A stretch of 20,516 nucleotides of DNA from Candidatus Sumerlaeales bacterium (GTDB lineage Bacteria > Sumerlaeota > Sumerlaeia > Sumerlaeales > Sumerlaeaceae), in NCBI GenBank assembly GCA_038243585.1, contig JBBSQY010000055.1, forward strand, positions 1 to 20,516, in the 5' to 3' direction. Shown here piece by piece: positions 4,139 to 20,516 of the stretch. Within the stretch, counting starts at the first letter, position 1. Each line of letters starts with the position of its first letter. Position numbers and translations under genes: made by a program. The notes beneath the pieces were generated by a model. It did no database searches and was not told the origin of the DNA. It was given only the letters and a program-made list of their open reading frames with translations.

Positions 4139-4406
4139 CGGTGTAATTTAATCGACATCGAGCCGAACTGAGGGCTGCTGGTTCTTATCAGCAGCTGGGG
4201 GGTTGTGGTACGCATTGTCTGTGCCAGCGAGTTTCTTAAGAATACTCTGACGGTGTCGCGGGTAAGGTTACTTGCTTTGGAATCGGCCTGCCATGGGAGA
4301 CGTGCGTTTACACGCTTATGCGTAACGGCAGGCGCTTATCCAATGTCCACTGCAAAAACCCGCTGCGCCCGTGCTGTTCTGGTTATAACCAGACAGCCAA
4401 GGAGGA
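4139..4406 (+). promoter_or_regulatory. Structured 5' leader of rpoBC ending at the SD
   Basis: Hairpins at 4174-4195, 4206-4226 and 4229-4247; a long nested arm 4258-4363; hairpin 4373-4397; SD AAGGAGGA at 4399-4406. Confidence 0.5.
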
Positions 4407-4418
4407 ATCTGTATTAAT

Positions 4419-7400
4419 ATGGCTTCGAAAAATGGCAACCATCGCGACCCCAACAGCAACTATCGCATCAATTTCGCCCGCATCCCCGATACAATGGAGA
4501 TGCCTTATCTTTTGGAGACCCAAAAGAAGAGCTACGAGCAGTTTCTACAGTTTAACCTTCCGCCGGATGTTCGCGAGAACATGGGTCTGCAGGAGGCCTT
4601 TACCAGCGTATTCCCGGTAACCAGCGCCAGCACGCCATCGACGCTTGAGTTTGTTGAGTATAGCTTTGGTGCGCCTAAGTACTCGGAAAAAGAATGTATC
4701 GACCGCGGCATGACCTTCGCGGCGCCCTTGAAGGTAAAACTTCAGTTGATCGTGCGCGAGACGAACGTCGAGACCGAAGAAACCGACATTAAAGACATTA
4801 AGGAACAGGAAACATATATGGGGGAAATCCCCCTGATGACTGACCAGGGCACGTTTATTGTAAACGGCGCTGAGCGTGTTATCGTTTCCCAGCTTCACCG
4901 TTCACCGGGCGTTAGCTTTTCCTCCTCGATCCACCCGAACGGCAAAACCCTTTTCAGCGCGCGGGTCATTCCTTATCGCGGCGCATGGGTAGAATTTGAA
5001 GTCGACATCAACAACGTGATGTATGTCATGGTTGACCGTAAGCGCAAACTGCCGGCGACCACTTTCATGCGCTGCTTTGGTTTGATGGATGACGAGCAGA
5101 TCGTTCAGGAGTTCTTTGAGACCAAGGAAATCAAACTGGACGATTTCAGCAAGGGCGCCTCTAAAGTGAGCGACCTGGTTGAGAAGTTTCTAGGCAATGA
5201 GTTTATCGAAGAAGTGCTTGATCCTGAAACCGGCAAGATGCTTGTGCTGAAGGGCGCAAAGGTCACCAAAAAAGCGACTGAAGCTCTTAAGAGCCATGGT
5301 ATCACCGAGGTTCATCTGAACGTTGCTGTCGGGTATGAGCATCTGATCGGCCGTATCCTTGGCCGTGATGTTGTCGACCAGGACACTGGCGAGATCATGT
5401 CTGAAGTATTCGAGCGCATCACGACGACGATGCTGCGCAAGTTCGGCCAGGCCGGCGCGCGTAAGATCTATCTGGTTGAAGTGAACGAAGAAGAGCCGAA
5501 CGTGGTGATGAGCACGATGTCGAAAGACAAAGTGCGCACCTACGAGGAGAGCCTTATTGAGTTCTTTAAGCGCATGCGTCCCGGCAATCCTATCAGCCTG
5601 CAGAGCGCCCGTCGCCTGTTTGATGATATGTTCTTTAACGAGAAGCGTTATGATCTGGGAGCTGTTGGTCGTCATAAGATCAGCCGCCGGTTTAAGCTGG
5701 AAGACGAGACTTCGCGCACGCTGATCCTGTCGGACGTTGTGGCTATTGTTAAGCACCTTTCAAAGATCGCCCAGGAAGATCTGGACATCGACGATATCGA
5801 TCACCTTGGTAACCGCCGGGTGCGTAGTGTTGGTGAGCTCCTGCAGAACCAGGTTCGCCTGGGTCTGACCGAAATGGAAAAAACCGCCCGCGAGCGTATG
5901 GCCATTGTGGATCTGGAAAACCTTCTTCCGCACAATCTTATCAACGCCAAACCGCTTGTCAGCTCGGTCAAGGATTTCTTTGGTCGCAGCCAGCTGAGCC
6001 AGTTTATGGATCAGACAAACCCTCTCAGCGAGCTGACGCATAAGCGTCGTCTATCTGCATTAGGGCCCGGTGGTTTGAGTCGCGATCGCGCCGGTTTCGA
6101 GGTGCGCGATGTGCATCATACCCACTACGGCCGAGTCTGCCCGGTTGAAACGCCTGAAGGTCCAAACATTGGTCTGATTTCGTCGCTTGCCAGTTATGCC
6201 CGCATTAACGAATTCGGATTCATCGAATCGCCTTACCGCAAGGTAAACAACGGTGTGGTGACCAACGACAAGTTCTACCTGACAGCCGACGTTGAAGATG
6301 ATTTCATCGTGGCCCAGGCGTCAGAAGTCTCTGAAGATGGAACTGGCTTTAAGAGCGAAAGCGTTTTGAGCCGCCATCAGGGCGATTTTCCAAAAGTTAC
6401 TGTTAACGACGTTGCTTACGTTGATGTGAGCCCGAAACAGCTCGTATCGGTCTCCGCCGCTCTTATCCCGTTTCTTGAACACGATGACGCCAACCGCGCA
6501 TTGATGGGTTCGAACATGCAGCGTCAGGGCGTTCCATTGCTGTTTACCCGTTCCCCTGTAGTGGGTACTGGTATCGAGCATAAGTGTGCCATCGACAGTG
6601 GTTCGTGTGTCGTATCGAAGAACGACGGTGTCGTTGAGCGGGTAACAGCCAATGAAATTGTCATTCGCAATGAAAACGGGCAGATGGACACCTACCGCCT
6701 GACCAAATACAAGCGTTCAAACCAGAACACGTGTATTAATCAAAAGCCGATCGTGGATCAGGGCCAGAAGGTCAGCATGAACGAGGTCATCGCCGATGGC
6801 CCGGGCATCGAAAAAGGGGAGCTGGCCATTGGTCAGAACCTGCGCGTAGCCCTTATGCCTTTTGGTGGTTACAACTTCGAAGATGCTATTCTGATCTCTG
6901 AACGTGTCGTGAAAGAGGATGTATTTACTTCCATCCACATCGAAGAGTTTGAAGTGGACGCCCGCGATACTAAGCTGGGCAAGGAAGAAATCACCCGCGA
7001 TATTCCAAACGTAAGCGAAGAATCCCTGGCCAAGCTGGACGAAAGCGGCCATGTTCTTATTGGTACTGAAGTAACTCCCGGCGACATCCTTGTGGGTAAA
7101 GTCACCCCTAAGGGTGAAACTGAACTTACGGCGGAAGAGAAATTGCTCCGCGCGATTTTCGGTGAAAAAGCCGGCGATGTTCGCGATGCGTCCCTGAAAG
7201 TTCCTCCTGGAACCTACGGAACGGTTGTCGACATTAAAGCCTTCAGCCGCAAGGAACGGGGCGTCAAGAGCGACCGCGACGACAAGAACCGCATTGAATC
7301 TATCGAAAAAGACCGCGACAACGAACTGTCGAATGTTGAAATTGAGTTCACAGAAAGTCTGAAAGAACTTCTCAAGACGATTGAAAAACCAGTTACAAAC

Positions 7401-8549
7401 TTTGAAACTGGTCAGGTGGAATTGAAGCCTGGGCAGAAGGTTTCTGATTCGTCTGTCAACTACGTTAAACGCAGTCTTCGTACTGGAATGTTGCCTGTCG
7501 AAGGGGCAGCCGGTGCTGAGGTGAAGCGTCTTTATCAGAAGCATACGGCGCGAGTCGCAGAAATCGATGATATCGCACGCAACAAAGTTGACAGGATTAA
7601 GACTGGCGACGAATTGCCGCCGGGCGTGATCAAGCTGGTAAAGGTGTATGTGGCCGTGAAGCGTAAGCTTCAGGTGGGTGATAAGATGGCCGGACGCCAT
7701 GGTAACAAGGGCGTCGTGGCGAAGATTATGCCTGTTGAAGATATGCCTTACATGGCGGATGGCACGGCGGTCGACATCGTGTTGAACCCGCTGGGCGTAC
7801 CTAGCCGCATGAACATCGGTCAGCTCCTTGAAACTCATCTTGGCTGGGCAGCAATGGCTCTTGGTGTGGCCTACGCGACGCCGGTGTTTGACGGCGCCGA
7901 GGAAAAGGAAATCCAGGAAGAGCTGATCCGCGCACGCGAACACATTCTTAAAAACAATGGCGATAAGCGGAAGTTTGCGGACCTATCGGACGAAGAGAAA
8001 CTAATGGACGTAAATCCTACAGGTCAGGTTCTTCTGTATGATGCCGCCACTGGTGAACCCTTTGATCGCCTTGTAACAGTTGGCGTTATGTACATCCTTA
8101 AACTTGCCCATCTGGTTGACGATAAGATGCACGCGCGTTCCATTGGTCCGTACTCACTTGTTACCCAGCAGCCGCTGGGTGGTAAGGCACAGTTCGGCGG
8201 TCAGCGTTTCGGAGAAATGGAAGTTTGGGCGCTGGAAGCTTACGGTGCTGCTTACACTCTTCAGGAACTGCTAACTGTTAAATCCGACGATGTGCAGGGC
8301 CGTACAAAAATCTACGAATCGATCATCAAAGGCGAAAACCATCTGCAGCCTGGTATCCCGGAAAGCTTCAACGTGCTTGTGAAAGAACTACAAGCGCTGG
8401 GGCTTAACATGGAACTGCTGACTGAGGATGACTCAATAGTGGACGAAGACGAAGAAGAAAGCCCGTACGATTCTCTGCTTAGCAGCGTCGAAGACGACGT
8501 TTCATTTGCAGAGCGCGGCGGCGACGACCTCGACGACGAAGAGCTGTAA
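4419..8549 (+). CDS. rpoB: DNA-directed RNA polymerase subunit beta
   Basis: Motifs [78 protein letters not shown] and [19 protein letters not shown]. Strong SD. Confidence 0.99.
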
Positions 8550-8637
8550 CTTAAGAATCTGCAGCTCGTTACTTCCACTGTTTCACTGAATAAACCCAAC
8601 AGTTATATAGGCGACTCGGAAAGGCAGGACTACTACC

Positions 8638-11600
8638 ATCGCTATCAAGAAGACAACTAAAGCGGCGACCGCTGCGGCGGATTCACCGGTAAAAATAGCA
8701 AAAGCCAAGGCCACAAAGGCCCGCGTAACGAAGCGAGAATCCAAAACTCCTCGGGAGGTGCTGGCGTTTGAAGGCGTACGCACCCATGAAGAAAAAATAA
8801 AAACTCACTACCGCTCGATTCCTCTGGGGACTGAGCGCGACGACCAGGTTGATCTGAACTCTCTGAATGCGGTGGCGCGTATCACAATTGCGTCGCCTGA
8901 GCGAATCCTGCAATGGTCTCGTCGCAACAGCCGCGCTGCAGAACGCCGTATCGGTCTGAGCAGCAACCGCTTTGATGATATGGACTTGTCCAGCTTTGGT
9001 GAAGTGAAAAAGCCTGAAACGATCAACTATCGTACGTTTAAGCCGGAAAAAGATGGTTTGTTCTGCGAGCGTATTTTTGGGCCTACAAAAGACTGGGAAT
9101 GTGCCTGCGGCAAATACAAGCGCATCAAGTACAAGGGTATCGTTTGTGACCGTTGTGGCGTTGAAGTTATCGAGAGCAAAGTCCGTCGTACCCGCATGGG
9201 GCACATCAAACTTGCTGCGCCGGTCTGCCATATCTGGTTCTATAAAGGCACGTCCAGCCGCATCTCCAGCCTGCTTGATGTTTCTGTAAAGGATCTCGGC
9301 AAGGTCATCTACTTTCAGAATTTCATCGTTATTGATCCTGGTGATTCCCCTCTGAAAGAAAAACAGATTCTTACAGATGACGAAGTGCGTAAGTACCGCG
9401 AAGTTTATGGTGACAAGATCGATTTGCGCATCGGTGCAGAGGCTGTTCGCGAGATGCTTCGCAAAATTGACATCGACGAGTTGTCCACCCGCCTGGCTAT
9501 TGAAATGCGCCAGGCCACCAGCGCTCAGCGACGTAATAAAATTATCAAGCGCCTAAAGATTGTTGAAGCCTTCCGTGGTTCTGATAACGATCCGCAGTGG
9601 ATGGTTATGGAAATCTTGCCGGTTATCCCGCCGGAATTGCGTCCTCTTGTTCATCTGGATGGTGGGCGTTTCGCCACGTCAGATCTTAACGACTTGTACC
9701 GCCGCGTTATCAACCGTAATAATCGCTTGAAGAAACTTATGGAACTTAAAGCTCCTGAAGTGATTCTGCGTAACGAAAAGCGCATGCTTCAGGAAGCTGT
9801 AGATGCTCTGTTTGACAACAGCCGTCGCACACGTCCTACGAAGGGTCACAACAACCGTCCTCTAAAATCTTTGAGCGATATGCTCAAAGGCAAACAGGGC
9901 CGGTTCCGTCAGAATCTGCTCGGAAAGCGCGTTGATTACTCTGGCCGTTCTGTTATCGTGGTCGGACCCGAGCTGAATTTCAACGAATGCGGCCTGCCTA
10001 AGAAGATGGCTCTTGAGCTGTTTGACCCCTTTATCATTAGAGAGCTTGAGTCCCGCGGTTACGTTAATACTATCAAGGCAGCAAAGAAGATGATGGAGCG
10101 TGAAGCTCCGGAAGTCTACGATATCCTTGACGATATTATTAAAGACCATCCGGTCTTGCTAAACCGCGCACCGACACTTCACCGTCTGGGCGTTCAGGCT
10201 TTCATGCCGCGCCTGGTTGAAGGTAAGGCGATCCGTCTGCACCCACTGTCATGTACGGCCTTTAACGCTGACTTTGACGGCGATCAGATGGCTGTCCACG
10301 TGCCTTTGAGCACGGAAGCGAAGCTGGAAGCGATGAACCTGATGCTTGCGGAGAACAACATTCTCTCCCCTGCAAACGGCAAGCCGATCTCTACGCCCGC
10401 ACAGGACATGGTTCTCGGACTTTTCTACATTACCAAGCTTGTTATTAATGAAAAGCGCTACACTGGCGTAAAGACCGACGAAGAAAAGCAACGCCTGATG
10501 CCGCGCTTCTCATCTCGCGATGAAGCCATTATGGCGCTGAACCATAAGGTGGTAACTCTGCAGGAGGAAGTAATCGTTCGACTGGCGGATGGCCGTAAGG
10601 TCAAAACAACGCCCGGCCGCGTGATGTTCGCATCCATCCTGCCAGATGAAATCGACTTTTTCGACGAAAAGTCACCTATCGCCAATACCGTTATGACCAA
10701 GGGTCTCCTGGGTCAGGTTGCTGCGGTTGCGCATAAGCTGGTCGGTCCAAAGCGTACGGCCCGCATGCTCGATGCCATGAAGAACCTTGGATACCAGCAG
10801 GCTAAGGTGGCCGGTATTTCTATCTGCATCAGCGACATGGTCATCCCGCCCCGTAAAGGCGAGATTCTTGAAGCAGCCCGCAAAAAAGTCGATCAGGTCA
10901 TGAAGCATTACTCAAAAGGTCTGATCACATACGGCGAACGCTACTCGAAGATCATTCATGAATGGTCGCTTGCCACGGATGCCGTAGCCAGCGAAATGAT
11001 GAGCTTGATGCAGAAGGATCAGAAGGGTCTGAACCCGGTATATATCATGTCGCAGTCCGGTGCTCGTGGTAACGAAGCCCAGATTCGTCAGCTTGCCGGT
11101 ATGCGCGGTCTGATGCAGAAGCCAACCAAGAAGATCACTGGTGAGGTGGGTGAAATTATTGAAAGCCCGATCATCTCGAACTTCCGCGAAGGCCTAACAG
11201 TTCTTGAATACTTCATCTCCACCCACGGTGCACGAAAGGGTCTGGCTGATACGGCGCTGAAAACATCCGACGCTGGATATCTGACACGTCGGCTTTGCGA
11301 TGTGGCCCAGGATCTGATCATTACCCAGGAAGACTGCGGCACGCAGGACGGCATTACCGTCGGCGCAATCATCGAAGTAACGCGTACGGGTGAACGGGAG
11401 CTTGAACCACTGAGCGATCGTATCGCAGGACGTGTGGCTTGTAACCGGATCAAAGATCCGGAAACCGGCAAGGAAATCGTTAAAAAGAACGAAATCATCA
11501 CTGACGAACAGGCCAAACAGATTGAGCGGTCCGGCATCGGAACGGTTGCAATTCGTAGTGTTCTGACCTGTCAGACAAAGCGCGGCGTTTGTTGCAAATG

Positions 11601-13092
11601 TTATGGCCGCAACCTGTCGACAGGACGCGTCGTCGAATTGGGCGAAGCCGTCGGAATTATCGCGGCTCAGTCCATCGGTGAACCAGGCACTCAGCTGACC
11701 TTGCGTACGTTCCACATCGGTGGTACAGCATCGGTCGACGTTGAGGGTTGGTACCAGTCATCCGCGGACGGCATCATTAAGTTCCGCGATATGAAAACGG
11801 TCAGCAATACGGAAGATATCGCAATCGTAATTGGTCGCGGTGGTTCGATGGTTGTTGAGGATGAAGGCGGGAACGTCCTGCAGACTCTACCTATGATTCC
11901 TTATGGTGCTCGCATCCTCGTAGCAGAGGGCGCGCAGATCAGCCGTGGTGATCGTCTGGTGGAATGGGATCCTCACTTTACACCAATCCTGTCCGAACAG
12001 GCTGGTATCCTTCATCTGTCCGACATTGTAACTGGCATCACCTTGAAAGAAGAGTTCGACACACAAACGGAAATGACGCAGCGTATTATTTCCGAGCATA
12101 AGGACGAGCGTCATCCTTCCGTTCAGATCATGGACAAGAAGGGCGAATTGCTGGCCCAGTATGCGCTGAGCTCTGGAACAATTCTTAGCCGCGAAGTGGA
12201 AGACGGTCGTGCGGTGGGCGCTGGCGAAGTGCTGGCCCGTATTCCGCGGTCTCACACGAAGAGCAAGGACATCACCGGTGGTCTGCCGCGCATTGACGAA
12301 CTCTTTGAAGGCCGCAAGCCTAAGGATTCAGCAGTCATCGCTAAAATCGACGGCGTGATCCGCATCAAAGGCAGCGCCAAGGGAGCGAGAAAGTTCACAA
12401 TCACTGCGGAAAACGGTGACGAGATACTGGAGTCGATCCCGGTGAGCCGCCATCTGGTGGTTCGAGATGGCGAACGCGTCAATGCAGGCGATATCATAAC
12501 TGACGGAACCCCAAGCCCGCATGATGTGTTGGCGGTTAAGGGCGAGAAAGCGGTAATGGAATTCCTGCTCGGCGAAGTTCAGGAAGTGTATCGCCTCCAG
12601 AAGGTGAACATTAACGATAAGCACATCGAGAGCATCATCCGTCAGATGTTGAAAAAAGTGGTAGTCGAAGAGGTCGGCAACACCCGCTTCCTGTACGGGC
12701 AGCAGGTCGATCGCTGGGAGTTCATTGAAGAGAACCGTCTCACCGAAGAAAAAGGTGGAACACAGGCCAAGGGCAAACCGAAACTTCTCGGTCTTACCAA
12801 GGCATCTCTTGAGACGGAATCCTTTATCTCGGCAGCTTCCTTCCAGGAAACAACCCGCGTGCTTACCGACGCGGCCGTGCGTGGACGCTACGACTTCCTC
12901 CGCGGTCTGAAGGAAAACGTTATCATGGGTCTGTTGATTCCTGCAGGAACTGGCTTACCGGCATACCGTAACATCCACGTGAAACCTCACGAGGATGAAA
13001 TTGGTCCGGACGGTAACGACGAAGACTACAGCGGCGACGACGATGGTTACGACCAGGATGAAGCATTCGAAGATACTGCAAAAGAAGCGTAA
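8638..13092 (+). CDS. rpoC: DNA-directed RNA polymerase subunit beta' (start uncertain: ATC 8638 proposed; first canonical start is GTG 8758)
   Basis: Motifs [13 protein letters not shown], the zinc ribbon ([12 protein letters not shown]), catalytic [36 protein letters not shown] and [15 protein letters not shown]. The frame is open back to a TAG at 8608. Confidence 0.98.
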
Positions 13093-14005: not shown

Positions 14006-14346
14006 GATACCTCTCCTATATTGATTGAGATTTCTTTATAATAATTGGGGCGTGAAGTCGTTTGCTGCGAAGTTCAAGTTGGTAAATGATCTATTGTTTT
14101 TAGAAAATCAATAAAGTTATAGTGTTTCCGACTTAACGCAAATCTACTTATATCCGCAGAGAAAGGCCAAATGGGGTCGGAGAACTTAGGAAAGCGGAAC
14201 TGTTCCGAAAGATAACTGTGAAGACACTGCCATTCGTATTATTTAGATGACCGGAATACGTCATATTCCGGGGGAACGGGAACGGCCTTACGGATATTTT
14301 TAGGAGTGCCAGTGGGGGGGCTTATATGGCAATGGGCATTGAACCA

Positions 14347-15084
14347 CTACAATGCGTTAGTATATCCCTTGGGGGAGCGTTGGGAATACATGATATTGCC
14401 CCAGCTCAAGGTTCCATTCGTAGGATCGTAGGGTTGCCACAAGATCAGAGGATTAGAGTTGCTGACGCCTTGCCAGCCACGATGAGGTGTGGGTGCGCCT
14501 GGATCGACGCCGTCAGGGCCTACGGCAAAGAGGAGGTAATCCCCAAATTCTGTTTGGAAATTTATAAAATTTGCATTTCGTCCCGCGCGGGCCGGGTCCT
14601 CCACAGGATCGAATTTAGTCCCGTAGATCGATTCGGTATTCCAGTATTTAATGTCATTCCACTGCCAGTAAGGAGCAGGTTGACCTCCAACAGTGGGCAT
14701 TGCTTTATTAAATGGGTCAGGAATCCGGCACGTATTAAGGTAGGCAACCGGTGTCGTTAAATTTTTTGAAATTCTATTGTGGTTATATTCCGTTGGGACT
14801 GGGTAGCCATTTGCACCGCGGATGTGAAAATATCCATCGTATGCACACACGTTGTAATCAATCCTGTAGGTTTCGATTCCGGTTACACAGGTTCTTATGT
14901 CTGCGTAATTTCGCGCTATTTTAGCGCGCGTTTGGGCTTCCAGGAAATTAGGCACCGCAATGGCCGCCAGGATCGCAATTATCGCCACGACGATAAGCAA
15001 TTCAATCAGTGTGAAAGCCCTGCAAAACCGGTTTGTTCTGAGCGTTTTCCCATGCATGATTTCTTTTCCCGTTTCTGCAGGCAT
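14347..15084 (-). CDS. Prepilin-type N-terminal cleavage/methylation domain protein, paralogue 2 (alternative start ATG 15057)
   Basis: A|FTLIELLIVVAIIAILAAIAVPNFLEAQTRAKI, IETYRIDYN, LTTPVAYL..IPDPF, AVGPDG and YDPTNGTLSWGNI. Confidence 0.9.
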   Translation of the reverse strand: MPAETGKEIMHGKTLRTNRFCRAFTLIELLIVVAIIAILAAIAVPNFLEAQTRAKIARNYADIRTCVTGIETYRIDYNVCAYDGYFHIRGANGYPVPTEYNHNRISKNLTTPVAYLNTCRIPDPFNKAMPTVGGQPAPYWQWNDIKYWNTESIYGTKFDPVEDPARAGRNANFINFQTEFGDYLLFAVGPDGVDPGAPTPHRGWQGVSNSNPLILWQPYDPTNGTLSWGNIMYSQRSPKGYTNAL

Positions 15085-17233: not shown

Positions 17234-20200
17234 ATGGCCAGTTTTAAAAGAAGTATAGGATTATTAGCCGCCGCAGCCTTTTCAATGGCCGCCGGCAGCG
17301 CAGACGCGGCGGGTTTCCAGACTATTATAACGCAGGCACCGACAGGGCCTGGAACGCCTGTGAAAGTGAAGCTTCATTACGATGGAGCGCCAGAACAACA
17401 GTTTTCAGCATTTTCGTTTCAGGTCAGTTTCGATTCAACCCAGGTGGAATTGGTTGGTGCCGACGATTTTGATTCAAACTCTGCTAATAATGCTAATGTC
17501 AGCCAGACTGCCAGCAACATAACTACTGGTGGCGGCATGATCCCGGGTTATAATGCCTACAAAGTCGTGGATGGCATCGATGATGTGAACCCATATACTG
17601 CTGTTAACGGTGACCTTGTTGAAATCGAGTTTTTAACCAAAAGCGGTTATTCCGGACCCATGAAGCTGGATATTCGTCCGTACGATGCCCCAGACGGGTT
17701 TATGGATGAAAACCAAGCTGAAATAGTAATCACTGACGTTACTGAACCTCCTCTCGTCTATGATTCTCCAGTTGTAACCTCAGTAACACCGGACGGCAGC
17801 TGGGTTGCCAACGACGATCTGGTTGTGACGGTCAACGGCAGCGGTTTTTATGACGGATCCAATGGCCAGCCATTGTCGCAGATCGTCATCGATGGCCTCG
17901 TCTATTCGAGCACCTATGTTTCCTTCAACCAACTGACTTTAGATGTTGATGACAACCTGGTGACGCTAGGGAACAAGGCCGTCTCTGTGGCGAACTCTGG
18001 TTCCCAAGTTAACCAGTCTGCAACTTCCGAAATCGTTGAAATTGTTAACCGAGACATTGTCTACGTGGACGACACATACGCCGGAAATTACAGCGAAGGG
18101 CAGTTTATCGCTTCTGGAACTCCTAATCAATATTTTGGTGCTAACGCTTTTGCGACAATCGCGGGCGGCGTTGATAAAGTTAACGCCACCAAACTAGTTA
18201 ACGTTGCTGACGGAACTTACCCAGAAAACGTGATTATTGCGAAGGCGCTAAACCTTGTTGGTAACGGGCCTAACACAAATCTTACGAATGATGACGCTGA
18301 AACAACTCAGGTTTTGCTCACAGTAAATGCGAACGACGTTCACATTTCCGATCTGACCTTTCAGGTCACTCCACAAGTTGGATCAGCGATCTACGCCTAT
18401 GCCAAAACCAACCTGTCAGTAATCGATTGTTTTTTTCACAGGAGCGGCGCGGCTGGCTTTGGGGGTAAGTTGCCCTCCTCGCTTATCGGATCTCTGGGTT
18501 CTAACTGGGGCTCACGTGGTATTACGTTTGGCGGCACTGGAGTAAACACAAGTCACGTAGTCCTGACCGGAAATGACTTCACCTCTGCAGGTGGAGCAGC
18601 CTTTATGTATGCCATGCAGGTTTATTTGTCAGAAGCCACCATTGGTGGAAGTTCCATTCTTGCAAACACGACTATTGCCGGTGGCGCATATCGCGATCTG
18701 GAATTCACTCAGGGCAAAGGCCAGATCAAATATAACAAGTTCGGTACAAACGTGGATGTAAGCAATGCCTACGGTTTGGTTGAGCTTGAAGAAAATGATT
18801 TCGGCGCAGGGGGGGATGGTGCTCCTTTACATAACGAAGCGGCACTGACCATTCGCGGAGCGCAAAATGTGAACGCAGATGTCCAGGTTAATACGAATCA
18901 CTTTAAACATACCGGTCGTGGAATCTGGGTTGGCGCTTCAAAAAACGTCACAATTGACGGCAATGACTTCATGCCCATGTATGGCTTCACCATTGATTTA
19001 GGTGATCTTGATTTTGCTAATGAGCCTGCTCTTGCACTATCAGCTACAGAATATACCCACATCCTGATCGACTCCCGGCCAGTTACAAGTAATGAACCAG
19101 GAGCTGATGTTGAAGTGGATGTGACGAACAACACGTTTAAAGACGTTTGGACTGTCGGAACCGCAATCAACCTGAAGAACACCAGGGGAAACAACTTCGA
19201 TCTAACCTTTACGGGCAACACGTTTGAGGCTCCGGGTGGGGAAGACCAGTTTTTCAAAATTGACAATAATTTTAATCAAGATATAGATATCAGCAACAAC
19301 AATTTTAGCGGTGTAGCTAATTCCGCCAATGTTACTCTTCCGGAATCATTCCTGCTGGAAAATCGTATCACGCATGGTATGGACAGCAACCGTGCGGCAG
19401 GCACCGGTATCGCTTACTGGACTCCAAACCAGGTCTTTGTCACAGATCCTGCTGACTTATCAGTTCTGCCTACTGGAGTTACTAGTTCAACAGACTCCAG
19501 CATCCAGCGCGCAGTTGACGTTTCAAATGTCGCTGGAACCATTAACGTGCAAGCTGGACTGTATCCTGAGTCAAACGGAGTAGACCAGGGTCTAGTTATT
19601 AACAAACAGGTAACAGTGCTGGGACCTAACTCCGCAAACGCCGGCGCAAGCTTGTCGCGCGCCGCAGAGGCTAAAATTGTTCCGGGAGTGCTGCTTAATA
19701 ATGGCACTGACGTGGCTAGTGATAATGCCGTAATTACGGTTACTGTTGCAGGGGTCGTTTTAAAAGGCTTCGCTATCAGTGGGGACAACACGAACATTTC
19801 TGGATTTAACCATGCGGGTATGAACGTTGATGCTGCCACCGGTATCCGTGTCGCTACCGATCTTGTCGATCCTGCGGCAGACAATGTTGTAATACAGAAC
19901 AACGTGGTGACTAACTTGACGTATATTGGTGTCTTCTTTGACGCTCATAACAACCCTCTTGGCGTCCAGTATCACGGATTGCGCGTACAGAATAACCTGG
20001 TTGAAAACGTGCAGGACTTGAGCATTGGTTATGGTTTCGGATTGTATCTTCAGGCCGCTTCTGGCATCGTAAGTGGAAACACGATCCGTAATGTCCGGAA
20101 CGGAATGCAGATTCAGCCGTATAAGGTCTCAACGGTTGTTGCAGGTGAAAACGAAGCAATTGATAATATTGTCTCAGGATGGCGAACGGGTATTTATTAC

Positions 20201-20516
20201 AACTATGCTGATGCCGAATCTTCACCTTGGATCGTCGGCTCATTGGGACATCCCAACACGATCACGGTAGCTTCCTTGCCTTCAGGCGGCCCAAGCGTGG
20301 TGTGGGATGGTATCTATGTTCAGACTATCCGCGCAGGCGCTGGTGGAACGCTGAGCTCCAATATCATCGACGGAACCAATGCTCCTACGTCTAATGGTAT
20401 ACGCGTCAATAACGTAGCTACACTTTCGAACAACCTTCTTTTCCAGGCTAACATAATTCGAAATGTGGGTACGGGTCTTTCCCACGAAGCACCTGGAAAC
20501 ATCACGTTCAACGGTA
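17234..20516 (+). CDS. Large secreted multidomain surface protein (signal peptide, cohesin-like domain, IPT/TIG domain, at least two right-handed beta-helix modules); truncated by the window end
   Basis: Hand translation from ATG 17234 stays open to the window end (~1094 codons). Signal MASFKRSIGLLAAAAFSMAAGSADA; then FSAFSFQVSFDSTQVELV..NGDLVEIEF; PVVTSVTP..VTVNGSGF..STYVSFNQLT; AFATIAGGVD..VNVADGTYPENVIIAKALNLVG; SIQRAVD..INVQAGLYPE..INKQVTVLGPN; and many xxNxF/NN strands. Confidence 0.9.
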   Translation, partial: MASFKRSIGLLAAAAFSMAAGSADAAGFQTIITQAPTGPGTPVKVKLHYDGAPEQQFSAFSFQVSFDSTQVELVGADDFDSNSANNANVSQTASNITTGGGMIPGYNAYKVVDGIDDVNPYTAVNGDLVEIEFLTKSGYSGPMKLDIRPYDAPDGFMDENQAEIVITDVTEPPLVYDSPVVTSVTPDGSWVANDDLVVTVNGSGFYDGSNGQPLSQIVIDGLVYSSTYVSFNQLTLDVDDNLVTLGNKAVSVANSGSQVNQSATSEIVEIVNRDIVYVDDTYAGNYSEGQFIASGTPNQYFGANAFATIAGGVDKVNATKLVNVADGTYPENVIIAKALNLVGNGPNTNLTNDDAETTQVLLTVNANDVHISDLTFQVTPQVGSAIYAYAKTNLSVIDCFFHRSGAAGFGGKLPSSLIGSLGSNWGSRGITFGGTGVNTSHVVLTGNDFTSAGGAAFMYAMQVYLSEATIGGSSILANTTIAGGAYRDLEFTQGKGQIKYNKFGTNVDVSNAYGLVELEENDFGAGGDGAPLHNEAALTIRGAQNVNADVQVNTNHFKHTGRGIWVGASKNVTIDGNDFMPMYGFTIDLGDLDFANEPALALSATEYTHILIDSRPVTSNEPGADVEVDVTNNTFKDVWTVGTAINLKNTRGNNFDLTFTGNTFEAPGGEDQFFKIDNNFNQDIDISNNNFSGVANSANVTLPESFLLENRITHGMDSNRAAGTGIAYWTPNQVFVTDPADLSVLPTGVTSSTDSSIQRAVDVSNVAGTINVQAGLYPESNGVDQGLVINKQVTVLGPNSANAGASLSRAAEAKIVPGVLLNNGTDVASDNAVITVTVAGVVLKGFAISGDNTNISGFNHAGMNVDAATGIRVATDLVDPAADNVVIQNNVVTNLTYIGVFFDAHNNPLGVQYHGLRVQNNLVENVQDLSIGYGFGLYLQAASGIVSGNTIRNVRNGMQIQPYKVSTVVAGENEAIDNIVSGWRTGIYYNYADAESSPWIVGSLGHPNTITVASLPSGGPSVVWDGIYVQTIRAGAGGTLSSNIIDGTNAPTSNGIRVNNVATLSNNLLFQANIIRNVGTGLSHEAPGNITFNG

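Follow-up and report, generated by a model that had tools for sequence, protein, structure and literature searches.

At which codon does translation of rpoC, the gene for the RNA polymerase subunit beta', begin in a bacterium whose rpoC frame stays open for 49 codons before a canonical start codon appears? The question arises from a stretch of 20,516 nucleotides of a Candidatus Sumerlaeales bacterium (NCBI GenBank assembly GCA_038243585.1, contig JBBSQY010000055.1, positions 1 to 20,516 of the forward strand), which is called the window here. It corresponds to contig C55 of the source genome G000, a metagenome-assembled draft of 3.43 Mb in 99 contigs with a completeness of 89.7%. The closest database proteins are those of "Candidatus Sumerlaeaceae bacterium" (64-78% identity) and "Candidatus Sumerlaea chitinivorans" (57%), and their names assign the organism to the Sumerlaeaceae, a family of the phylum Sumerlaeota (formerly BRC1). 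A sequence-only reading had proposed that rpoC initiates at a non-canonical ATC at position 8638 and that beta' consequently carries a basic N-terminal arm. Comparison with relatives gives strong support to this proposal, with ATC present in 11 of 11 members of a single clade, and translation of rpoC very probably starts at this codon.

The start region of rpoC

The product of the gene contains the Pfam domains PF04997, PF00623, PF04983, PF05000 and PF04998 in this order (Rpb1 domains 1-5; E 1e-79 to 4e-19) and matches solved beta' chains down to E = 3e-77; rpoB lies directly upstream. Re-annotated from the proposed initiation codon at 8638..8640, rpoC would occupy positions 8638..13092 of the + strand, with 1484 codons plus stop. 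It is preceded by an intergenic spacer of 88 nt (8550..8637, +). The rpoC frame is interrupted by TAG at 8608-8610 and is open from 8611 onwards, without any in-frame ATG, GTG or TTG until GTG 8758..8760. This GTG is the first canonical start of the frame, and it is also the start of the listed open reading frame (ORF) and the one used by gene callers. A gap of 49 codons without a canonical start is expected by chance with a probability of (61/64)^49, or about 0.1, and is not rare when taken alone. For this reason, the case for the start site rests on the strength of the Shine-Dalgarno (SD) sequence and on conservation.

The sequence AAGGCAGGA is located at 8621-8629 and is followed by 8 nt and then by ATC 8638-8640. 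It is part of an extended SD, AAAGGCAGGA (8620..8629, +), which would pair over 8 bp with the 16S rRNA tail CCUCCUUU, leaving one bulged C. The 3' end of the 16S rRNA was not found in G000 by a regular-expression search, as it is not assembled there, and the anti-SD was read from the 16S 3' ends of relatives, which carry the standard tail GGATCACCTCCTTTCT. The predicted SD/anti-SD duplex before ATC 8638 has an energy of -12.5 kcal/mol, which is equalled or exceeded by 1.1% of the 1928 predicted gene starts of the genome; the first percentile of a control of 3000 random positions is -11.7 kcal/mol. The duplex before GTG 8758 reaches only -1.1 kcal/mol because its GGGAGG abuts the codon without a spacer. 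No significant RNA secondary structure is predicted for the spacer and start region (z = 0.16), and no promoter- or terminator-like site is present on its + strand. Two further codons, TTG 8768 and ATG 8786, are out of the rpoC frame and run into TAA 8798, next to a run of six A (8792-8797). The sequence-only reading had described the open frame without a usable SD at its first canonical codon, the SD-like sequence 8 nt ahead of the ATC and an arm of 40 residues, among them 9 K, 3 R and 10 A; its coordinates and counts are exact in all three respects.

It had also singled out C8640 and the A6 run as bases to be confirmed in raw reads. Contigs of public sequencing runs uphold both, and for the ATC they come from two studies. 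In run X1, the probable source run, one contig covers 8300-8640 with no differences and a second covers 8616-9300 with two, and both read ATC. A contig of run X2, from a separate study, spans 8340-8729 with 12 differences and is unchanged across 8601-8675, such that SD and ATC are retained. None of the sequencing runs has an insertion or deletion, and this includes the A6 stretch, across which X1, X2 and X3 all extend. Thus neither an ATG at 8638 nor an additional A at 8792-8797 is seen in these contigs, and the substitution T8787C in X2 and X3 destroys the out-of-frame ATG 8786. Among RNA sequencing runs, none was found that contains this stretch.

Conservation of the ATC codon among relatives

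A six-frame search of 41 related genomes identified rpoC in 40, and 30 loci were read. In seven loci of the family, the sequence I-A-(T/I/A)-(K/R)-K heads a K/A-rich arm, with Ile invariably encoded by ATC; an in-frame ATG precedes the conserved block in each of the remaining 23. When metagenomes were scanned with the aligned N-termini, five loci emerged, of which four are rpoC genes of the ATC group, all with ATC, and the fifth is an unrelated weak match. A contig scan with universally conserved patterns yielded 80 loci of other phyla and none of the family, and was not used. Altogether, the ATC is found in 11 of 11 clade members, which comprise seven species genomes in six genera and the four metagenome contigs. 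The conserved non-AUG codon and the K/A-rich arm that the sequence-only reading had suggested to look for in relatives are therefore both there, with basic arms throughout the clade.

All 11 sequences share a unit consisting of AAAG(C)GAGG or AAAGG(C)AGG, 8-9 nt, ATC and GCT (GCC in one), and the shared codons after ATC are GCT ACC AAG AAG. The SD has the form AAAGCGAGG in most relatives, AAAGGCAGG in the genus of G000 and GAAGAGGG in locus L003. Both variants of the unit pair with the 16S tail over 8 bp with one bulged C, the bulge being shifted by one position between them. When the sequences are anchored on the ATC, ungapped pairwise identity is 25% at -78..-48 and 32% at -48..-18, rises to 76% at the SD (-18..-9), is 57% in the spacer (-9..-1) and 100% at the ATC, and then declines from 82% over the following four codons (+3..+15) to 41% at +15..+45. 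This conservation island has the shape that would be expected of an initiation site.

A beta' tree of 35 sequences, based on the part of the protein that lies downstream of the trait, unites the 11 ATC sequences in a single clade (Shimodaira-Hasegawa-like approximate likelihood ratio test, SH-aLRT, 93). Its sister group consists of four ATG-start sequences of the same family, and a fifth ATG-start family member, L042, is placed on a long branch. The initiator Met of the sister clade aligns within 1-2 residues of the Ile of the ATC clade (MAK... versus IATKK... in the protein alignment). Five of the 11 sequences (L002, L003, L004, L126 and L127) lack any ATG, GTG or TTG in the whole interval from the in-frame stop upstream to the invariant FEGVR block. 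One of these, L002, belongs to the same genus as G000 and is 86% identical to it; GTG 8758 is absent there, and the first canonical codon lies inside a 10-residue stretch deep in the conserved protein. In G000 itself, GTG 8758 is the sole canonical codon before FEGVR and precedes it by three codons. The arm frame contains no stop in 468 codons over the 11 sequences, whereas each of the other frames contains 16, and this holds over an arm length to FEGVR that varies between 33 and 66 codons. Database gene calls for the clade start at scattered places (e.g. P0001 begins with MLAFEGVR), as is expected if the true start is invisible to gene callers.

Taken together, the lack of a canonical route to FEGVR in five of 11 sequences, the open arm frame, the conservation island and the strong SD are the reasons for assigning the start to the ATC. 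In the proposed mechanism, the unusually strong extended SD at 8620-8629, which ends 8 nt upstream of the ATC, would position the 30S subunit. The ordinary initiator tRNA would pair imperfectly with AUC, and beta' would begin with formyl-Met, followed by AIKK... The initiation region would be tuned to offset the weak codon by its strong SD, GCT in second position, a coding sequence that opens A-rich and the lack of secondary structure. The product would be a beta' subunit with a K/A-rich, probably disordered arm of 40 residues ahead of a family-specific conserved module.

Several observations weigh against this assignment. At 12 other invariant Ile columns of rpoC in the same 11 sequences, 104 of 132 codons (79%) are ATC, and one of these 12 control columns is likewise all-ATC. 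As ATC is the preferred Ile codon in rpoC, its uniformity adds little evidence; a chance estimate for 11 of 11 that was based on genome-wide Ile usage (42% ATC) was rejected after the in-gene control had given 79%. The 11 sequences also share ancestry, and amount to roughly one evolutionary event plus retention. The same applies to the SD, for which the predicted duplex has a median of -12.5 kcal/mol in the ATC clade (range -7.0 to -15.8) versus -7.7 kcal/mol in the five ATG-start family members (-7.2 to -10.0), which is a single contrast between clades. G000 furthermore has a canonical GTG 40 codons downstream of the ATC, just before the conserved block, and a shorter isoform starting at GTG 8758 might be produced in this genome. 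It is also awkward that an essential and abundant subunit would be made from a codon yielding 1-2% of the AUG output in E. coli reporters, given that rpoB keeps ATG. Finally, the arm evolves fast and received no coding score in a codon-usage screen. In its refined version, this screen ranked infC 5th and recovered the frameshift of prfB; the rpoC arm scored 0 and came in at rank 1591 of 2575. The screen is blind to such arms because the rpoC arm is of low complexity. An initial version, applied upstream of first canonical starts, was swamped by antisense shadow ORFs and was replaced by the refined one.

The spacer between rpoB and rpoC differs within the clade. L004, L126 and L005 contain a G+C-rich hairpin 20-45 nt upstream of the SD (e.g. 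GCCCCGCCCGCGGGGC), which could be an attenuator or a processing site; G000 lacks this hairpin of some genera.

Initiation machinery and near-cognate starts in the genome

G000 encodes three tRNAs with a CAU anticodon and a single tRNA-Ile(GAU). One of the CAU tRNAs is the initiator: it has a 1:72 mismatch, and three G-C pairs adjoin its anticodon loop. Another has the same acceptor stem as tRNA-Ile(GAU) and can on this basis be read as a lysidine-type tRNA-Ile. Since nothing points to a special initiator, AUC would be read by the normal fMet-tRNA, as in E. coli reporters.

The gene for initiation factor 3 (IF3), infC, starts at ATT in G000 (contig C17, about 62443-62445, + strand; L123:1483-1485), 8 nt behind GGAGGA, and contains no ATG, GTG or TTG in its first 51 codons. 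Of 13 family genomes fetched for comparison, 12 were read: 11 have ATT and one has ATC at the aligned infC position, and in seven the open frame upstream contains no canonical codon. Thus, an IF3 discrimination circuit of the E. coli type appears to be present in this genome.

Near-cognate starts are apparently not a general habit of the genome. The count included 19545 codons between the upstream stops and the first canonical starts of well-scoring genes. A strong SD (at or below -9 kcal/mol) precedes 4.4% of ATT, 5.1% of ATC, 3.6% of ATA and 5.2% of CTG codons, with a baseline of 4.1%, and most of these matches are one or two codons away from a real ATG.

Individual candidates were nevertheless encountered elsewhere in G000. 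A 494-codon ORF on the minus strand of contig C52 encodes an FAD/NAD-type oxidoreductase whose GxGxxG motif (VVIIGAGPAG) lies upstream of the first canonical start at codon 40, and this gene may start at CTG or be frameshifted. On the minus strand of contig C23, near reverse-strand position 10233, a signal-peptide-like sequence, NKFTCLTTLVFLGVGVCGA, is encoded in a 900-codon ORF, 34 codons ahead of the first canonical start; this sequence follows GGGGAGG-N6-CTG, and the ORF may use the CTG as start. The gene for release factor 2, prfB (contig C50, + strand), has a split frame with the usual programmed +1 frameshift.

Possible regulation of beta' synthesis

In E. coli, AUA, AUC, AUU and CUG are reported to initiate at 1-2% of AUG, and the product initiated at AUC had an N-terminal Met (bioRxiv 10.1101/063800). 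The AUU or AUC codon of infC is described as the target of IF3 autoregulation, with infC still reaching thousands of copies per cell, and ppGpp (guanosine tetraphosphate) and nutrient limitation are reported to inhibit non-AUG mRNAs preferentially (PMC5499595). IF3 sensitivity of the rpoC start is plausible because infC starts at ATT in G000 (ATT or ATC in the family) and because the initiator tRNA is standard. Initiation of rpoC at AUC would then be less efficient than at AUG and selectively repressed by IF3, ppGpp and nutrient limitation would probably lower it too, and beta' rather than beta would limit polymerase assembly. We consider it quite possible, although short of probable, that the AUC start renders beta' synthesis IF3-repressed, probably responsive to ppGpp or nutrients, and thereby an adjustable limiting step of RNA polymerase production. 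A more comprehensive picture, in which rpoC is under the start-codon fidelity system, IF3- and ppGpp-tuned beta' synthesis matches transcription to translation capacity and the arm contacts nucleic acid near the RNA exit, is rather unlikely to hold as a whole. If regulation of this kind exists, rpoC output should increase whenever IF3 is in short supply compared with 30S subunits and should fall under ppGpp or starvation. Such post-transcriptional control would take the place of the growth-rate control achieved differently in other bacteria. The RNA polymerase level may in this way be tied to initiation-factor status.

A serious rival to the functional part of this proposal accepts the ATC start as real and denies it any regulatory meaning. 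An ATG-to-ATC change would have been fixed once, tolerated owing to a stronger SD and retained thereafter, with adequate beta' output and no tuning by IF3 or ppGpp. The trait has indeed a single origin on the tree, and the SDs of the ATC clade are stronger than those of its ATG-start sister clade, which fits a compensation for the weak codon. The lack of a genome-wide enrichment of strong SDs before ATT, ATC, ATA or CTG (3.6-5.2% versus 4.1%) also agrees with neutral fixation, as no wider near-cognate regulon is seen. On the other hand, reversion from ATC to ATG requires a single transversion, and yet it occurs in none of the 11 lineages in at least six genera, although beta' path lengths within the clade reach roughly 0.4-0.5 changes per site according to the tree branch lengths. 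This lack of reversion across the clade suggests that the weak codon is maintained. In addition, an AUC start is expected to be IF3-sensitive in the presence of a standard IF3 and initiator tRNA whatever its origin, as judged from the effects reported in PMC5499595. We therefore regard neutral fixation as conceivable, but not as the likely outcome.

The genomic context was also considered. The sequence-only reading had suggested that initiation fidelity could replace a lost coupling of rpoC to the ribosomal protein operons, and this suggestion is not supported. In every family genome with both genes, rplL is located on a different contig from rpoBC; in G008, a second, weak L12-like match is present at a distance of about 12 kb from rpoC. 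In G007, which belongs to an ATG-start genus and consists of one contig, rplL at 0.86 Mb and rpoC at 2.90 Mb are 2 Mb apart. As this uncoupling is common to the ATG-start sister genera and not specific to the ATC clade, the ATC cannot be tied to the lost linkage, a point that likewise agrees with neutral fixation.

The rpoB-rpoC gap measures 79-232 nt in 13 of the 15 family loci in which it is measurable, and is then too long for stop-start coupling of the two genes. For the remaining two gaps, 311 nt in L003 and 25 nt in L009, the upstream ORF calls are suspected to be spurious. All 12 family genomes that yielded a match start rpoB with ATG, and the SD in G000 reaches -11.8 kcal/mol. An ATT two codons before this ATG has a better SD spacing, and was dropped as a candidate start because it is not conserved, being CTT in G002, and because the ATG is present in all relatives.

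Alternative start sites

Among the alternatives to ATC 8638, translation from GTG 8758 performs best. The region 8611-8757 would in this case be an untranslated leader that is conserved as an RNA element. The position of this GTG as the first canonical codon just ahead of FEGVR speaks for it, as do the poor codon-usage score of the arm and the rapid change of its sequence between relatives. However, the GTG lacks a spaced SD (-1.1 kcal/mol), is missing in L002 of the same genus, and has no canonical counterpart before FEGVR in five of the 11 sequences. An untranslated leader would also leave unexplained why the arm frame is open in 11 of 11 sequences of variable length, with 16 stops in each other frame. 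The region has no significant RNA fold, and its conserved part resembles an initiation site with SD, fixed spacer, ATC and GCT ACC AAG AAG rather than an RNA element. Thus, initiation at GTG 8758 instead of at the ATC appears improbable.

Alternatively, the arm could be translated from a different signal, namely ATC 8644, ATA 8692, or a programmed frameshift or read-through by ribosomes arriving from rpoB or another frame upstream. Further near-cognate codons are indeed present in the G000 arm, and the genome uses a +1 frameshift in prfB. Conservation argues against both codons, since all 10 relatives have ACC, ACG or GCG where G000 has ATC 8644, and ATA 8692 is also unconserved. Entry from another frame is opposed by the absence of ATG in the other two frames between 8609 and 8640, by TAG 8608 in the rpoC frame, by the end of rpoB at TAA 8549 in a different frame 88 nt upstream, and by the unconserved sequence upstream of the SD (25-32% identity). 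Altogether, such signals are very improbable sources of the arm, and ATC 8638 is retained as the proposed start.

An assembly or sequencing error at C8640 that conceals a true ATG can practically be discounted: the genome is a metagenome-assembled draft and in the probable source run the Logan contigs are interrupted at 8616-8640, but two overlapping X1 contigs and the X2 contig of a separate study all read ATC, as do ten independently assembled relatives at the same place.

The basic arm and the N-terminus of beta'

Initiation at the ATC would add a basic arm of 40 residues to beta' (8638..8757, +), which is rich in K, A and T and has a net charge of +9. Within the ATC clade, the arms comprise 30-63 residues, are likewise rich in K, A and T, and carry net charges of +3 to +14. 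Among the five ATG-start family members, four carry arms that are shorter (28-30 residues) and rich in Arg, with charges of +5 to +8, and the fifth, L042, has an arm of 44 residues with a net charge of +1. The ATC clade is therefore not alone in having a basic N-terminus, which also occurs in its ATG-start sister sequences.

Lys/Ala-rich basic tails are known from chlamydial Hc1, the C-terminus of mycobacterial HupB, Pseudomonas AlgP and the C-terminal domain of eukaryotic histone H1. The arm resembles these tails of nucleoid proteins and H1 in its K/A/P/T-rich, low-complexity and strongly positive make-up; in contrast to them, it is fused to the N-terminus of beta' and shows no sequence-family relationship. 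A hmmscan of three arms against Pfam gave no match at E<=10, and thus no histone, Hc1 or HU family. The designation of the arm as histone-H1-like in the sequence-only reading is thus appropriate for its composition, but it extends neither to a family match nor to a confidently predicted structure.

The arm is followed by a family-specific conserved module (EVLAFEGVR...YRxIPLGTE...DLN; 8755..8859, +), in which F44, G46, V47, R48, Y58, I61, G64, E66, L73 and N74 are invariant. The module lies upstream of the part that aligns strongly to solved beta' chains. Strong alignment to these chains sets in at query residue ~102-119, preceded by a weak alignment from ~62, so that the first ~60 residues have no structural counterpart. 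An AlphaFold2 prediction for residues 1-302 from a 16-row alignment gave a poor overall model with a mean predicted local distance difference test (pLDDT) score of 47.5. The pLDDT of the arm is 36-40, and the model contains no secondary structure in residues 1-86, which weakly suggests that the arm is disordered. In polymerase structures, the N-terminus of beta' continues into the zipper and zinc-binding elements, which lie next to the RNA exit channel and upstream DNA, and a contact of the arm with nucleic acid is plausible.

Further downstream, beta' contains a lineage-specific insertion of about 25 residues (8920..8994, +) between the sequence ASPE(R)IL(x)WS and a 13-residue stretch. The insertion was also noted in L011-L013, L016, L019, L020, L023-L027, L029 and L030. 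In other families of the class, the version at the same place contains four Cys (CRQTDRRGxCKCGK...C) and resembles a small zinc ribbon, whereas the Cys residues are gone in Sumerlaeaceae.

Other features of the window

The rpoB gene, encoding RNA polymerase beta, occupies 4419..8549 of the + strand, contains the Pfam Rpb2 domains and starts with ATG behind a strong SD. Its start region (window ~4395-4421; L150-L160) has a family-wide arrangement of GGAGGA, about 11-13 nt (often with TnTGTCTA) and ATG, in which the distance between SD and ATG is unusually long yet fixed. A sulfatase gene is found upstream of rpoB on the opposite strand. Three ORFs of the window, all on the + strand, have no Pfam match (17234-20515, 1054-1692 and 14326-14760); one Pfam-less ORF exceeds 1094 residues and runs off the end of the window.

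Comparison with known systems

So far, near-cognate AUU and AUC starts have chiefly been described for infC and a small number of low-abundance genes. Literature searches on non-canonical or AUC starts of rpoC and on start codons in Sumerlaeota yielded no publication on this case. Every public gene call of the clade that was examined truncates or mis-starts beta'. As a consequence, Sumerlaeota RNA polymerase alignments, trees and models lack 40-120 N-terminal residues, including the conserved module. The locus also suggests that weak start codons can serve highly expressed genes if the SD compensates.

At the sequence level, the proposed rpoC start shares the features of starts of the infC and pcnB type: the absence of a canonical route, an SD, and a conserved codon at the position equivalent to a canonical start. 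Similar to the AUU/AUC start of infC, it is an SD-led AUH near-cognate codon on a central gene-expression protein, is conserved and is missed by gene callers. Different from infC, rpoC does not encode a translation factor, and any effect of IF3 would be cross-regulation and not autoregulation. Moreover, the codon is ATC in 11 of 11 rpoC sequences, while infC of the family mostly has ATT, and the presumed IF3 dependence of rpoC is extrapolated from E. coli.

A second parallel is pcnB of E. coli, encoding poly(A) polymerase I, where an AUU-type start is reported to limit a nucleic-acid enzyme (PMC4447247; bioRxiv 10.1101/063800). In contrast to this low-abundance, non-essential enzyme, beta' is essential, abundant and needed 1:1 with beta, whose gene keeps ATG. 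The ebpA gene of E. faecalis is described as having a lineage-conserved rare start codon, ATT, with a wrongly annotated downstream ATG, and as being expressed at a lower level from ATT than from an engineered ATG, which was verified experimentally (PMC4447247). The ebpA case concerns a pilus protein within one species and is experimental, whereas the rpoC case spans genera and is built on sequence comparison. Thus, the class of mechanism is already familiar from infC, pcnB and ebpA, and it is rpoC as its carrier that differs.

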